Below are positions 5,815 to 50,668 of a DNA stretch of 64,000 nt, piece after piece. The notes below the pieces were generated by a model. It made no database searches and was not told the DNA's origin. It worked only from the letters and a program-made list of their open reading frames with translations. Position 1 is the first letter of the stretch. Every line of letters begins with the position of its first letter. The stretch is from an uncultured Candidatus Saccharimonas sp. (GTDB taxonomy: Bacteria; Patescibacteriota; Saccharimonadia; Saccharimonadales; AQU-01), in the NCBI GenBank assembly GCA_943358095.1, contig CALRGT010000003.1:6169-70168 (forward strand). The letters are read 5' to 3'. The position numbers and the translations under genes are program-made.

Positions 5815-6615
5815 ATGGTAGATATGAAAACACTCAACGAAATCATTGATCTATCCGGAAAGTCGGCAATTGTAACTGGTGGGGCAAAAGGTATTGGATA
5901 CGGCATAGCCTATAGGCTGGCAGAGGCAGGTGCAAAGGTGCTGATAGCAGATCTTGACGATGTAACAGCGCAGGAGGCCGCAAACGAGCTTACCGGTAAG
6001 GGCTGGACTGTTAAGGCGATAAGAACTGATGTATCTGACGAACAGGCCGTAAAAATGATGATAGACGCCTGTAAAGAGCTGTATGGCTCAGTTGATATTT
6101 TGGTGAATAACGCTGGCATTTATCCGTCTGAGCCGGTTTCTAGTATGACAGCCGAAGGATTCGACAAGGTCATGCATGTAAACCTCAGAAGTGTATTCCT
6201 AACTACTAAGTACGCGTCGGAAGTTATGAAAGAGCAGGGTGGTGGCAAAATTATTAATGTGTCATCAATTGACGCGCTACATCCATCAATGATTGGGCTC
6301 GCTCATTATGACGCCTCAAAGCACGGCGTATGGGGGTTCACCAAAAATTCAGCTCTTGAACTTGCCGAACATAAGATTTGGATTAACGCGATTGCACCAG
6401 GTGGCATAGCTACTCCTGGAGTCGTTGCCAGTAGTGGTGGTGCTAGCGGCGAGCAAATGGCAGAGGCGACAAAGGCTTTTCTTGGTAAGATCCCTATGCA
6501 TCGAATGGGCGAATCCGACGAGATTGGAAAGGTTGCATTATTCTTAGCAAGCGACATGTCTAGCTATATGACAGGTAGTCAAATAGTGGTCGACGGCGGA
6601 GTACTATTAAGCTAA
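5815..6615 (+). CDS. SDR family oxidoreductase (FabG/glucose dehydrogenase-like)
   Basis: TGGAKGIGYGIA cofactor motif, NNAG, and catalytic S...YxxxK (YDASKHG). Confidence 0.9.
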   Translation: MVDMKTLNEIIDLSGKSAIVTGGAKGIGYGIAYRLAEAGAKVLIADLDDVTAQEAANELTGKGWTVKAIRTDVSDEQAVKMMIDACKELYGSVDILVNNAGIYPSEPVSSMTAEGFDKVMHVNLRSVFLTTKYASEVMKEQGGGKIINVSSIDALHPSMIGLAHYDASKHGVWGFTKNSALELAEHKIWINAIAPGGIATPGVVASSGGASGEQMAEATKAFLGKIPMHRMGESDEIGKVALFLASDMSSYMTGSQIVVDGGVLLS

Positions 6616-25877: not shown

Positions 25878-26097
25878 GCCACTTTTGATTCGGCAAAAGT
25901 GGCGCAAAACCGAGGGGCGGTGGCCACAACTCGATATAGCTTCCTAACAAGGAGCACAACACAGCCTGCGGAACTAGCTGCTTCGCAGCGTCAGACAGTC
26001 CTCGGCAGGAAGTGTTGTTGTGCTCTTGTAGGAATCTATCTCGGGTTGCACCCAGGCCCCACATAAGCCCATGGATGCCCGCTGGAGGCGGGCTATT
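25878..26097 (+). ncRNA. candidate structured RNA / palindromic repeat element, copy 1 (unclassified)
   Basis: 10-bp hairpin GCCACTTTTG/CAAAAGTGGC, then a long imperfect rod helix. Ends in terminator GCCCGC-tggag-GCGGGC + TATT. Paralogous to complement(28400..28621) with paired substitutions. Confidence 0.45.
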
Positions 26098-26143
26098 GAT
26101 TGGTATATAGTTAGAGCAAATCAAGGTCTGCTATGATTAAATC

Positions 26144-26680
26144 ATGTCAGTAGATAAATCACGTAATTTTGAATTAGAAATAGATGAAAATCTAAAACTC
26201 CGTCAGTTAATTCCCGACGAAGCCAATTTAATATTTAGTATTGTGGATAGTGAAAGAGAGTATTTAGGTAAGTGGTTGCCGTGGGTCAAAACAACCCAAA
26301 CACCAGAAGATTCTAAAGATTTTATTGAAAGTATTATAGAAAAGCGACAAGAAGGCTCAGAATTTGGTTTTGGAATAATCGTCAATGACCAGCCAAAAGG
26401 CCATATAAGCTTAATGCATGTTAGTGATGGCAAAGGGCCAGAAATCGGTTATTGGATATCAAGCCAGGAATCAGGCAAGGGCATAACTAGTAAAGCGGCT
26501 AAAACGGTCACCGAATTTGGTTTTAAGACATTAGGTCTAGATAAAATAACAATTCGAGCCGACCACAGAAATATAGCTAGCAACAAAGTCGCCGAAAAGT
26601 TGGGCTATATCCTGACGGGTCAAGAGTATGCGGGCACGGAAACTGCAATGAATGTTTGGGAAAAGACTAAACCTATATAA
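26144..26680 (+). CDS. GNAT family N-acetyltransferase (RimJ/RimL-like)
   Basis: 178 aa; acetyl-CoA motif region GKGITSKAAKTVTEFGF and C-terminal N..A..VAEKLGY. Confidence 0.85.
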   Translation: MSVDKSRNFELEIDENLKLRQLIPDEANLIFSIVDSEREYLGKWLPWVKTTQTPEDSKDFIESIIEKRQEGSEFGFGIIVNDQPKGHISLMHVSDGKGPEIGYWISSQESGKGITSKAAKTVTEFGFKTLGLDKITIRADHRNIASNKVAEKLGYILTGQEYAGTETAMNVWEKTKPI

Positions 26681-26690
26681 GACCATGGAT

Positions 26691-26713
26691 GCCCGCTGGA
26701 GGCGGGCTATTTT
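26691..26713 (+). terminator. intrinsic terminator after GNAT gene (third copy of the repeat's terminator module)
   Basis: GCCCGC-tggag-GCGGGC + TATTTT. The ~35 nt AAGACCATGGATGCCCGCTGGAGGCGGGCTATT are shared with 26063-26097 and complement(28400-28436). Confidence 0.8.
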
Positions 26714-26730: not shown

Positions 26731-27510
26731 TTAGTTTTTGGAGCTGAGTGTACCTAGGACTATTATCCAGGCCAATAACGATTTAGCGATTAGGCTGAGC
26801 CAAACATAGGCGCGCTCGCCGTATGCATAGTCCTTCCATTTGCCGATCTTTTTGTACTGTAACCACATGTTGACAGCAAAAGTATTGAACAGTAAGAACG
26901 TTAACAAAAAGCCGAGCTTGGCGTACCACGGTATAGAATCGGCTATATTGCTAGTACTTGCCCAGAAGTATATGCCACCGATTATCCAAGGTACGATGCC
27001 AGCAATAATACCTATATTAAACGGGAACCATGATGTTTTCTTGGTTAGTTGATTGTAACGTTCCATTTCTAGACCCCAGATGTTCATAAGGAAATTAAGA
27101 GTAAAAACAAAAACTACGCTCGGCAACTCGTTTAATCCACCCATCATAAGTAGGACGGTAATCATCAGTGATGAACTGATGGAGTATTCCAGCCAGCGCA
27201 TAGGGTTTATGCCTTTTTTGATATTGGCTTCATAGCGGCGATAGTACATTGGTGAGGCTACGAAAAGATGAAAAAAGGCTGCAACTAGCAGAAATAGTGG
27301 ACCAACAACTGCTATAGGTATATCAACAAGTATCTTGGTCGCAAAAGTGAAGTCACCATCAGGAGCCACATCAAAAAAGCGAGTAATAATAGGTATCTTG
27401 AGCGAATAGTTCAAAATTATGAGCATTATCGTCGCCTGCAAAAGATGCACGGAACCCATAATAATATTAAATCGTCGAAGTTTTTTGGTCTGGTTGTTTT
27501 TAAATATCAT
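26731..27510 (-). CDS. heliorhodopsin
   Basis: 7 TM. Recalled heliorhodopsin 48C12 motifs are all present: FNxxxGxVHLLQ, MRWLEYSISSSLMI, GIIAGIVPWI, GERAYVWLSLIAKSLLAW (Schiff-base Lys). Confidence 0.9.
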   Translation of the reverse strand: MIFKNNQTKKLRRFNIIMGSVHLLQATIMLIILNYSLKIPIITRFFDVAPDGDFTFATKILVDIPIAVVGPLFLLVAAFFHLFVASPMYYRRYEANIKKGINPMRWLEYSISSSLMITVLLMMGGLNELPSVVFVFTLNFLMNIWGLEMERYNQLTKKTSWFPFNIGIIAGIVPWIIGGIYFWASTSNIADSIPWYAKLGFLLTFLLFNTFAVNMWLQYKKIGKWKDYAYGERAYVWLSLIAKSLLAWIIVLGTLSSKN

Positions 27511-27554: not shown

Positions 27555-27580
27555 GCCACTTTTGCCGAATCAAAAGTGGC
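27555..27580. repeat. third copy of the 26-nt hairpin GCCACTTTTG-6 nt-CAAAAGTGGC
   Basis: Same hairpin as at 25878-25903 and 28596-28621. Here it sits immediately upstream of the heliorhodopsin -35 box. Confidence 0.8.
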
Positions 27581-27674
27581 ATAATCACGATAAGCTTATC
27601 AGGAAAAGGCGCTTGTCATATTAAGCAGAAGTATTCTAGCCTTTTGCCCGTAATGAATGCTCTATTATTTCTAA

Positions 27675-27959
27675 ATGAGCGATATTAACTTCTGCCCACA
27701 TTGCGGTCACGACTTAGCGATGTATCAAAATAACGATTACTCTACTGCAGACAACACAGAGGATGAAAATCTTTTAATAGCTGTAAAATGCGTAATAGAG
27801 GCCAATAAAGCGTCGACATCACTGCTTCAAAGAAAGATGAGGATCGGTTACGGTATGGCAGCGCGTTTGATAGAGACGATGGAAGAACGGGGCTATATAG
27901 GGCCTGCTATTGACTCTAAACCACGAGATGTACTAATAGATAGTATTGATCGAATGTAA
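27675..27959 (+). CDS. zinc-ribbon + stand-alone FtsK gamma (winged-helix) domain protein
   Basis: N-terminal CPHCGH. The C-terminal [32 protein letters not shown] matches the FtsK/SpoIIIE gamma domain. Confidence 0.8.
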
Positions 27960-27963
27960 TGGT

Positions 27964-28401
27964 ATGAATATTTACCTAGATATTGACGGAGTGATAGTCG
28001 CGAATGATAATAACGCAGCTAATTATGCTGCGGAGTTTATTGAGTACGTATTAAATAAGTTCCCAGACACAACCTACTGGCTGACTACTCATTGTCAAGG
28101 TGACGCAAGTCAACCGATTAAGGACATTGGTCATTTGTTTGATGCCAAAACCATTGATTATATGAAGATGATTAAACCGACAACTTGGTTAGACTCACCA
28201 AATAAAACATCGGCTATAGATTTTAGCCAACCCTTTTTATGGTTTGACGACGACTGTTTTGACGGCGAGAGGCAAGAGTTAATCAAGAACAATGCACTAG
28301 ATAATTGGATAGAAGTTGACTTAAGTAAAGATCCAGACCAACTGCTAAAATTCATAACCAGTTTTCCGATTGCTTCTGAAATGGCACAAGAAGGCTCATA
28401 A
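27964..28401 (+). CDS. hypothetical protein, HAD-like N-terminal motif
   Basis: MNIYLDIDGVIV resembles HAD motif I (DxDGV). The rest is unrecognised. The ORF track's start at 27946 overlaps the upstream gene. Confidence 0.5.
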   Translation: MNIYLDIDGVIVANDNNAANYAAEFIEYVLNKFPDTTYWLTTHCQGDASQPIKDIGHLFDAKTIDYMKMIKPTTWLDSPNKTSAIDFSQPFLWFDDDCFDGERQELIKNNALDNWIEVDLSKDPDQLLKFITSFPIASEMAQEGS

Positions 28402-28621
28402 AAAATAGCCCGCCTCCAGCGGGCATCCATGGTCTTATGTGGGGCCTGGACGCGACCCGAAATAGATTCCTACAAAAAGACAACAAACTACTCCCCGAGG
28501 ACTGTTTGAAGTCCGATAGGACAAGTTCCGGAGGGCGTGTTGTCCTTTTTGTTAGGAAGCTATATCGAGTTGTGGCCACTGCCCCTCGGTTTTGCGCCAC
28601 TTTTGCCGAATCAAAAGTGGC
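28400..28621 (-). ncRNA. candidate structured RNA / palindromic repeat element, copy 2 (unclassified)
   Basis: The reverse complement aligns over its full length with 25878-26097: the first 73 nt have 1 difference, the last 72 nt about 5, and the central 75 nt are diverged but still fold. Minus-strand terminator + TTTTTT at 28400-28424. Confidence 0.45.
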
Positions 28622-28750
28622 ATAAATAAACTCCGCATCTGCGGAGTAAAAATAACTATATATAAGAAAAAAACGTTAGAAAATATCATAGACTGTAAGA
28701 AACGTGGCATAATCCGCAAAAAGCGCAATTGCGAGCCAGCAAGCCAGCAG

Positions 28751-49402: not shown

Positions 49403-49494
49403 AAAATATAAAGAGTGTAGCGAGGGTTCTAGCCCAATGACCTACCGGCAACCTACTAATTAATAGCAAGGTGCTCCATCTAGTCCGTAGTTAT
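49403..49494 (+). promoter_or_regulatory. SAM-I-type riboswitch aptamer upstream of metK
   Basis: The conserved core is readable: AAGAG-tgtagc-GAGGG-ttct-AGCCC-aatGA-cctaCCGGCAACC-...-GGTGCT. The P4 region looks short. Confidence 0.75.
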
Positions 49495-49495
49495 T

Positions 49496-50668
49496 ATGGA
49501 AACGATATTTTGCCAAAACATATCCTTTCCATATATTCACGGGGAAGGATATTTTATTTCAAACTCTACAAAAACAACACTATTTACTAGTGAATCAGTT
49601 GCCGCAGGGCATCCAGACAAAATCTGTGACGCCATAAGTGATGCAATTCTTGACGCAGCCTTAGCGCAAGATCCAAAAACGAGAGCCGGTATTGAGGCGG
49701 TTGCTGGCGCAAATCAGATCAGCCTATTTGGTGAAATTACCACTACCGCCAAACTAGACTATGAGGCGATTGTTCGAGAAGTTATTAAATCTCAAGGTTA
49801 CATTGAGCCAAAGTGGGGCTTTTCTGAAGAGTCAAAGTTCACAAGTTATTTACATCAACAATCGCCAGAGATATCGCAGGGCGTTGACCAAGATGGGGCT
49901 GGCGATCAAGGAATGATGTTTGGTTATGCCTGTAACGAAACCCCAGAACTTATGCCGATGCCGATTACTTTGGCACATGCTTTAGCGCGTAGAATCGACG
50001 AAGTCCGTCAGAAAAAAATACTCGATTATATCCGACCCGACGGCAAGGCGCAGGTTACTGTCGTCTACGAAGATGGCATACCTACTGCTATAGCTAACGC
50101 CGTTATTGCAGTAGCACATTCCGAGCAAGTTAGCGCCGATCAAGTTCGTGCTGGAGTTATTGCTGAGATTATTACCCCAGTTTTAGCTAAATATGGCTTC
50201 ACAGTGAGCGACGAAAATATAACTGTAAATGGCACAGGCTTATGGCATATACCAGGTCCAGAATCAGACGCAGGATTAACTGGTAGAAAAATTGTAGTAG
50301 ATACATATGGTGGTTACGCTCGTGTTGGAGGAGGCGCCTTTAGCGGTAAAGATCCGAGCAAGGTGGACCGTTCTGGCGCTTATGCGGCACGATATATTGC
50401 TAAAAATATTGTTGCTGCCGGTCTAGCGGATAAATGTGAGGTTGGTCTGGCATATGTAATTGGTAAGCCGAATCCTTTAATGCAAACAATTGAAACATTT
50501 GGAACTAGTAAAGTTTCTGACAAAGAACTTTACGACTTCAAAGATAAATTGATAGATACTTCGGTACGAGGAATAGTCGAAAAATTGCAGCTACTTAGGC
50601 CGATTTATTCTGCGACAAGCGCATATGGACATTTTGGTAAGCCAGAATTGCCGTGGGAGCAGGGGTAG
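49496..50668 (+). CDS. metK: S-adenosylmethionine synthetase
   Basis: LFTSESVAAGHPDKICD, GAGDQGMMFGYA and GGGAFSGKDPSKVDRS motifs. The ORF-track ATG 49496 lies inside the riboswitch platform. The conserved N-terminus is better served by ATT at 49556 (see findings). Confidence 0.95.
   Translation: METIFCQNISFPYIHGEGYFISNSTKTTLFTSESVAAGHPDKICDAISDAILDAALAQDPKTRAGIEAVAGANQISLFGEITTTAKLDYEAIVREVIKSQGYIEPKWGFSEESKFTSYLHQQSPEISQGVDQDGAGDQGMMFGYACNETPELMPMPITLAHALARRIDEVRQKKILDYIRPDGKAQVTVVYEDGIPTAIANAVIAVAHSEQVSADQVRAGVIAEIITPVLAKYGFTVSDENITVNGTGLWHIPGPESDAGLTGRKIVVDTYGGYARVGGGAFSGKDPSKVDRSGAYAARYIAKNIVAAGLADKCEVGLAYVIGKPNPLMQTIETFGTSKVSDKELYDFKDKLIDTSVRGIVEKLQLLRPIYSATSAYGHFGKPELPWEQG
49520..49559 (+). 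terminator. riboswitch expression-platform hairpin (terminator/SD sequestrator)
   Basis: 11-bp stem ATATCCTTTCC / GGGAAGGATAT followed by TTTTATTT. The 3' arm contains the GGAAGGA Shine-Dalgarno. Confidence 0.7.

Follow-up and report, generated by a model that had tools for sequence, protein, structure and literature searches.

A modular hairpin repeat at the ends of a heliorhodopsin-carrying island in Saccharibacteria and its relatives in other phyla

Two hairpin-forming units at the rnc–rpsP locus

The DNA analysed here (the window, 64,000 nt; positions 6,169 to 70,168 of contig CALRGT010000003.1, assembly GCA_943358095.1) is a chromosome segment of Saccharibacteria (TM7) with a GC content of roughly 41%, and in it two copies of a ~220-nt hairpin-forming element, which we call the unit, lie between rnc and rpsP. 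The gene order is leuS, nusB, NUDIX and rnc, followed by copy 1 of the unit, a GNAT acetyltransferase gene, a solitary terminator-like module (T), a heliorhodopsin gene (− strand), a solitary 10-bp hairpin (H1; − strand), a gene for an FtsK-gamma protein, a HAD-like open reading frame (ORF) and copy 2 (− strand), and then by rpsP and a gene for a KH protein. The same rnc protein is found on contigs of the metagenome-assembled genome (MAG) GCA_037137935.1 and on several lake metagenome contigs.

Copy 1 (25878–26097, + strand) and copy 2 (28397–28621, − strand; aligned over 28621–28404) match end to end between a common start, GCCACTTTTG, and a common end, GCGGGCTATT. A preliminary description of the sequence had reported one difference in the first 73 nt and about five in the last 72 nt, and we count exactly one (G/A, position 42) and five. 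The centre is diverged and contains 1-nt indels, from which it follows that this part of the unit is non-coding. Both copies nevertheless share one fold, also as described: H1, a linker, a long rod and the terminator-like hairpin T. The minimum free energy (MFE) is −102.6 kcal/mol for copy 1 (z = −5.5) and −93.4 kcal/mol for copy 2 (z = −6.5), and none of 200 shuffled sequences folded as well in either case. The rod folds equally well on both strands, with equal fold energies.

H1 of copy 1 (25878–25903, + strand) is a perfect 10-bp hairpin, GCCACTTTTG-ATTCGG-CAAAAGTGGC, at the outer (left) end of the island described below; the window holds three occurrences of this 26-mer, where chance predicts 0. 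Next come the linker GCAAAACCGA (25904–25913, + strand), of which the portion (G)CAAAACC is conserved family-wide (see below), and the rod (25914–26060, + strand), an imperfect long helix that extends from GGGGC to GCCCC, has arms covarying between the copies and in copy 1 is a near-continuous duplex of ~70 bp. The rod is tipped by an apical core (25970–26005, + strand), GGAACT-AG-(GCTGC-ttc-GCAGC)-GTCAGACAGTCCTCGG, and the T module (26058–26100, + strand) closes the unit. The corresponding parts of copy 2 are H1 at 28621–28596, the linker and rod, the core AACT...TCAAACA at 28527–28503 and the T hairpin at 28424–28408, all on the − strand. The paired exchanges pointed out earlier are present, namely CTGC/GCAG versus CTCC/GGAG, GGAGCA/TGCTC versus AAAGGA/TCTTT and the apical hairpin GCTGC-ttc-GCAGC versus GTCC-tatc-GGAC, and GGAACT and ACAGTCCTCGG are invariant between the copies. 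CCGAGG and CCTCGG are complementary, as had been seen, but a pseudoknot between them (CCGAGG/CCUCGG) is unsupported: the sites are invariant in Saccharibacteria, and no equivalent pairing was seen in the Nitrospira consensus. A small conserved ORF (type I toxin) is ruled out by the 1-nt indels and by differences in hairpin length that are not multiples of three.

T is a canonical hairpin of an intrinsic (Rho-independent) terminator at its three positions in the window (26077, 26691 and 28424), with a 7-bp stem that includes six GC pairs; in copy 1 the hairpin is GCCCGC-TGGAG-GCGGGC (26077–26093). Good U-runs follow at 26708 and 28407; that of copy 1 is weak (TATTGATTGG). The earlier statement that each copy ends in a terminator with a U-run thus stands for the hairpins and for the strong U-run of copy 2, but less well for copy 1. 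T of copy 2 is convergent with the HAD-like ORF. Upstream promoters were looked for and none was found.

An nhmmer search of strain-level contigs from related strains yielded 16 distinct full copies. In these, 98.3% of the pair cells hold standard pairs, and both-sided changes occur in 14 of the 64 pairs (all 14 among the 47 rod pairs), compared with 8.9 ± 1.5 in shuffled controls, where 0 of 500 reached 14, and with 0–4 when the structure was slid by 1–3 columns. Because the rod 'alleles' number three or four only, the covariation in Saccharibacteria stems from few independent events. The hairpin feature is real and statistically solid.

The units as ends of an accessory island

Three relatives whose rnc is 78–84% identical (L160, L161 and L163) have rpsP directly after rnc, with a spacer of 95–125 nt and no element. 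Since this short spacer can be aligned with the window's flank next to rnc and with its rpsP promoter (TTGACT-17-TAAAAT), the segment from about 25828 to about 28750 is an insertion, an accessory island of roughly 2.9 kb between rnc and the rpsP promoter. Copies 1 and 2 are its inverted ends, with H1 facing outward and T inward; on the right side about 130 nt of flank lie beyond copy 2. All versions of the island lack genes for a transposase or recombinase.

A fourth relative (L162; rnc 80% identical) has two divergent units arranged tail-to-tail at the rnc–rpsP site and no cargo. One of these comprises H1 (AUACUUUUUG-AUUCGG-CAAAAAGUAU), the linker CCAAAAAACC, an unrelated rod and the core GCGGAACUC-(hairpin)-CUCAAACAAUCCUCG, and is matched by the hidden Markov model of the window type at E = 2e-4. 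The complete spacer in L162 (8715–9400, 686 nt) folds with an MFE of −321 kcal/mol (z = −11.9) and holds extra hairpins besides the two units; a 110-aa gene call within it is probably spurious.

The position of copy 1, which starts 87 nt past the rnc stop codon (25790; ~90 nt in the preliminary description) on the same strand and with no terminator between, had led to the proposal that the rod is an RNase III substrate through which rnc is autoregulated. Copy 1 would indeed be co-transcribed with rnc, and its ~70-bp near-continuous duplex is of the kind that RNase III, an enzyme that autoregulates in E. coli, cleaves. Related species, however, lack the element after rnc; in four contigs of the same population (L001, L129, L130 and L132) the position is occupied by just a 3' half-unit, from which no rod can form; neither copy 2 nor any copy in another phylum has a connection with rnc; and the autoregulatory site of E. 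coli rnc is in the 5' leader, not at the 3' end. We consider such autoregulation very improbable. The tempting link between the element and rnc is a positional coincidence with no specific relation to RNase III, and to label the feature a 6S-like RNA or an RNase III autoregulator would be wrong. A transcribed rod would be a plausible substrate of the enzyme all the same.

Comparison of strains of the window's own population (94–98% DNA identity) points to the modules as sites of change. The 42-nt solo T (26672–26713, + strand; U-run TATTTTGATG) overlaps the stop codon (26678–26680) of the GNAT gene (26144–26680), which is island cargo. Solo T repeats the T of copy 1 in direct orientation and forms the right boundary of the GNAT cassette, which is hence flanked by direct repeats of T. 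Strains L004–L006 lack GNAT and have a single T at the position of the cassette. A cassette with a 208-aa ORF lies between units in L001 and L047. Solo H1 (27555–27580, − strand) is 9 nt upstream of the heliorhodopsin promoter, and at its position (equivalent to window 27564–27672) other strains have 7–10 kb of inserted restriction-modification (R-M) genes: type I R-M in L001 and L003; type III-like R-M with SNF2, DUF4391 and NYN proteins in L127; and an MmeI-type enzyme with a helicase and a T5orf172 protein in L128. None of these four inserts contains a recombinase. The site to the right of the heliorhodopsin promoter is a defence hotspot. The loop of solo H1 is inverted relative to strains that have a full unit, with its adjacent rod, at this site.

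Homology between strains breaks off at 27564, within H1, and at 26677, at T, and the strain contigs often have 3' half-units, units with internal deletions or remnants of H1. H1 and T are the places of cassette gain, loss or replacement. The type I R-M insert at the solo-H1 site is accompanied by a Ymh protein.

The other cargo genes are as follows. The heliorhodopsin gene (26731–27510, − strand; Pfam E = 2.6e-81) has a near-consensus promoter (27545–27517, TTGACG-17-TATAAT). Homologues in four other Saccharibacteria are in other, unrelated contexts with no repeat units nearby, and the idea that heliorhodopsin is mobile cargo elsewhere was rejected on this account. The FtsK-gamma protein gene (27675–27959, + strand) encodes a stand-alone protein of 94 aa beside solo H1, with a zinc-ribbon-like N-terminus (CPHC) and an FtsK-gamma winged helix. 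The ORF at 27946–28401 was considered as a hidden transposase and rejected as such, given its HAD-type DxDGV motif; it has no family match.

Metagenome contigs with GNAT are often only 700–870 nt long and are cut about 120–190 nt either side of the gene, where cuts would be expected from the flanking repeats. Many heliorhodopsin contigs are also about 1 kb; overall, the contigs of the GNAT cassette and of many heliorhodopsin homologues, L155–L159 included, are only about 0.7–1.5 kb. This suggests that the flanking repeats break metagenome assemblies around GNAT and heliorhodopsin, a practical point for anyone assembling such cargo.

Two smaller features lie near copy 2. The string GATTATGCCAC occurs twice in the window (0.03 expected by chance), at 27576–27586 (− strand), where it comprises flank plus the start of solo H1, and at 28699–28714 (− strand), ~80 nt outside copy 2 and followed by GTTTC; the latter has the appearance of a vestigial older H1 close to where the island really ends on the right. 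Directly upstream of H1 of copy 2 is a short hairpin of terminator type (ACTCCGCAGATGCGGAGT and TTATTTAT; 28630–28647, − strand), which has no gene upstream on that strand and is conserved in strain L117 beside a solo H1.

Relatives of the units in other phyla

Species-representative genomes were scanned for the pattern GCCACTTTTG-N6-CAAAAGTGGC, with at least 120 loci found. Among the matches listed, most were from Nitrospirota and Gammaproteobacteria (Rhodanobacteraceae and Lysobacterales), others were from a Desulfuromonas MAG and from a complete Kazan-group genome of the candidate phyla radiation (CPR), and a few were ordinary terminators. The loci have in common a TTTCGG loop and a CAAAACC flank, both absent from the search pattern. 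The CAAAACC linker is conserved after H1-type hairpins in the Nitrospirota, gammaproteobacterial, Desulfuromonas and CPR copies, and the H1 stem covaries across the family (GCCAC, GGUCC, GCUAC, GUUAC, GGCCC, AUAC) with loop and linker constant. The rod has a group-specific sequence and the same architecture in Nitrospira, Gammaproteobacteria and Saccharibacteria; both-sided changes were seen in 17 of 44 pairs in 39 Nitrospira copies and in 34 of 72 pairs in 13 gammaproteobacterial copies.

The apical core reads stem-AACUC-(hairpin of 7 to 31 nt)-UC(A/G)(A/G)ACA-N(0–2)-stem in 50 distinct copies from outside Saccharibacteria, with covarying stems, and is also present in the divergent unit of L162. 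At the corresponding place, the rod tip, the window copies read GGAACU-AG-(hairpin)-GUCAGACAGUCC, which is the family core AACUC-(hairpin)-UCRRACA in its local form. The loose core pattern by itself would occur by chance about 4.5 times per window, and hence the argument from the core rests on its rod-tip position, the enclosed hairpin and the shared H1 and linker. The sequence comparison as a whole places the window units in a cross-phylum family with those of Nitrospirota, Gammaproteobacteria, Desulfuromonas and the Kazan-group CPR.

Copy number and dispersal vary. The complete 0.6-Mb Kazan genome has at least one copy (one exact-H1 match among the matches listed), and single Nitrospira genomes such as T9 and MFD05684.bin.2.280 have at least nine exact-H1 copies. 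The many Nitrospira copies within a genome are about 80% identical. One Lysobacterales genome has four copies that are 94–99% identical, in inverted tail-to-tail pairs of ~700 nt, which indicates recent spread. Further units with variant H1 occur inside the 8-kb loci, tandem units 220–330 nt apart being common. Upstream of the copies no conserved promoter was found, and the upstream flanks differ between copies.

All units are co-oriented in 17 of the 18 loci with at least three of them, and unit orientation is correlated with local GC skew (Mann-Whitney p = 2.5e-4), which fits a link with replication direction or gene strand. Between the arrayed Nitrospira units lie toxin-antitoxin and defence-type genes (HigBA, DUF4258, Phd-YafQ with SecB, Fic, DUF433/DUF5615 and REase-ARP). 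Clustering of the proteins encoded beside the 120 loci yielded no recurrent neighbour family, the largest cluster being ABC ATPases. In the arrays of four Nitrospirales MAGs (L013, L023, L031 and L044), which are co-oriented, most cassette genes point against the direction from H1 to rod.

Such arrays, with roughly one gene or toxin-antitoxin operon per interval, bring to mind integron attC sites or CALIN arrays (clusters of attC sites lacking an integron integrase), and the unit might be a folded-DNA recombination site whose hairpin is recognised by a site-specific recombinase, in an integron-like cassette system that crosses phyla. It resembles attC sites in its conserved ends, variable but structure-preserving paired centre and conserved unpaired bases, and the bounding of cassette gain and loss in Saccharibacteria by units or T modules, the folding of the rod on either strand and the correlation with GC skew are in keeping with this idea. 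But neither strand has RYYYAAC/GTTRRRY cores (R''/R') at the unit ends or the base of the rod, as judged by eye; the units, at 215–250 nt against 57–141 nt for attC, are two to four times longer; and no integrase was seen in the loci examined (the 8-kb loci and the island versions). Moreover, gene orientation relative to the units is mixed, and single units also adjoin housekeeping genes, in either orientation. We therefore regard an attC-like site as doubtful.

Searches against known RNAs and other sequences gave no relatives. Neither of the two window copies matched Rfam 15 at the gathering score or at E ≤ 10, 6S (RF00013) and signal recognition particle (SRP; RF00169) RNAs included, and nothing significant was obtained for Nitrospira and gammaproteobacterial copies at gathering and permissive thresholds (17 related loci). 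The suggestion that the unit is a 6S-like or SRP RNA fails on this, its only available test. Apart from a length of ~200 nt and an overall rod shape, the unit also differs from these RNAs in being multi-copy, in having solo modules and in being absent from close relatives. BLAST of a window copy against phage genomes and of a gammaproteobacterial copy against plasmids found no match, and the exact H1 pattern had 0 matches in viral contigs; a generalised loop-plus-linker pattern had 18, which must be put down to chance as none has a hairpin. A literature search by sequence strings and keywords did not find a description of the family, which, being absent from Rfam, appears to be uncatalogued.

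Nature of the unit

We favour, with moderate confidence, the reading of the unit as a structured intergenic DNA repeat, similar to repetitive extragenic palindromes (REP) and bacterial interspersed mosaic elements (BIME) or to miniature inverted-repeat transposable elements (MITE), with T serving as a terminator. Pointing to DNA are the lack of a conserved promoter, the occurrence in either gene orientation, the solo, tandem and inverted modules, the breakpoints inside H1 and T and the ability of both strands to fold. In its many copies, intergenic siting and tandem, inverted or co-oriented arrangement the family behaves as do other large, structured repeats between bacterial genes (REP/BIME/REPIN, ERIC and Correia-type). 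The earlier assessment, which had left a choice between a non-coding RNA family and a MITE-like palindromic element, is then partly supported, the repeat element being the better supported branch: the multiple copies and inverted island ends agree with it, as do the near-identical copies in the Lysobacterales genome, whereas a plain MITE does not agree with the absence of terminal inverted repeats and target-site duplications from single units.

As to mechanism, units could be copied and recombined by way of their folded strand, which would most likely be single-stranded DNA arising in replication or recombination, with the short perfect palindromes of H1 and the repeated T modules as crossover points. 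REP elements are thought to act through single-stranded DNA, and IS200/IS605-derived elements have an orientation bias relative to replication (PMC6006769). When transcribed, T would end the transcripts of rnc and GNAT, and rod and hairpins would act as 3'-end structure only; in a DNA repeat such effects on transcripts would be incidental.

The likeness to known repeats is partial in each case. Like REP, BIME and REPIN (REP doublets forming hairpins), the units are non-coding intergenic hairpins without target duplications that occur singly, in intergenic clusters and as inverted doublets, can form structures at the 3' end of mRNA and, where old, are inherited vertically. REPs, however, have 20–40 nt and a GTAG-type head, whereas the unit has ~220 nt, three modules and a conserved apical core; no 5' GTAG-like tetranucleotide is conserved, the conserved parts being the loop UUUCGG and the linker CAAAACC; H1 and linker are near-identical over several phyla; and no RAYT or Y1/HUH gene was seen among the neighbours of the units. 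ERIC/IRU, Correia/NEMIS, YPAL, RUP and bcr1 are likewise repeats of 100–200 nt in intergenic regions that form rod-like hairpins once transcribed and alter transcript ends; those of Neisseria are targets of RNase III. All have terminal inverted repeats as well as target-site duplications and are limited to one genus or family, unlike the unit, which lacks both and is directional from H1 to T. The IS200/IS605-derived palindrome-associated transposable elements (PATEs) share with it the absence of inverted repeats and duplications, the end hairpins and the orientation bias relative to replication, but in the unit the left and right end hairpins are unrelated, no target tetranucleotide is conserved and TnpA/TnpB do not occur in the loci.

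Several observations weigh against a DNA repeat. No transposase, integrase or HUH enzyme was found beside any copy. No target-site duplication is present around the window copies or around 36 Nitrospira copies, and neither the Nitrospira units nor the window unit have terminal inverted repeats, only whole-unit pairs being inverted; with both lacking, no known transposition mechanism is supported. In the related Saccharibacteria the copies are not dispersed but, among the matches listed, confined to the rnc–rpsP locus. Many Nitrospira copies have their closest relative at apparently orthologous sites in other species, and these loci must therefore be old, stable and inherited, which also fits a functional RNA gene. 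UUCG-type loops, a strictly conserved apical core and a terminator are features expected of RNA, and the strand test (G-U versus A-C pairs, and fold energies) did not discriminate between the strands.

The same observations lend some weight to the view that the unit is the gene for a structured non-coding RNA, trans-acting or protein-binding and read from H1 to T, with core and linker as its functional parts and the rod as a scaffold. The UUCG-type loops are on H1 and on upstream hairpins, the intrinsic terminator stands at the 3' end in Saccharibacteria, covariation is strong, the core is strictly conserved across phyla, even the small Kazan genome keeps a copy, and conservation in Nitrospira is orthologous. 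An RNA gene is nonetheless hard to reconcile with the missing conserved promoter and differing upstream flanks, with units in either orientation relative to their neighbours, with fold energies that are equal on both strands, with the common truncated, tandem and inverted-pair copies and solo modules, with close relatives that lack the element entirely and with the lack of an Rfam match. We consider an RNA gene unlikely, if somewhat less so than the attC-like site. Equally tentative is a broader proposal, that of a new cross-phylum folded element which organises accessory cassettes, either as a long attC-like site used by some unrecognised recombinase, in an integron-like system of Nitrospirota, Proteobacteria and CPR bacteria, or as a new and widespread structured RNA whose genes lie where cassettes meet, and for which the core AACUC-(hairpin)-UCRRACA might be the recognition site.

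Under the preferred reading of a structured DNA repeat, too, conservation across phyla is unusual, as bacterial intergenic repeats are normally restricted to one genus. The combination of a ~220-nt modular unit, sequence conservation between phyla and siting at the borders of accessory cassettes, here including heliorhodopsin, is equally so. If a partner that recognises the units were found, whether recombinase or RNA-binding protein, it could account for the exchange of cassettes in genomes without obvious mobile-element genes, the tiny CPR genomes included.

Elsewhere in the window, a SAM riboswitch (S-box, 57.9 bits) lies at 49403–49511 (+ strand), upstream of an S-adenosylmethionine synthetase ORF (49496–50668); the listed start of this ORF overlaps the aptamer, and the true start is therefore probably further downstream.

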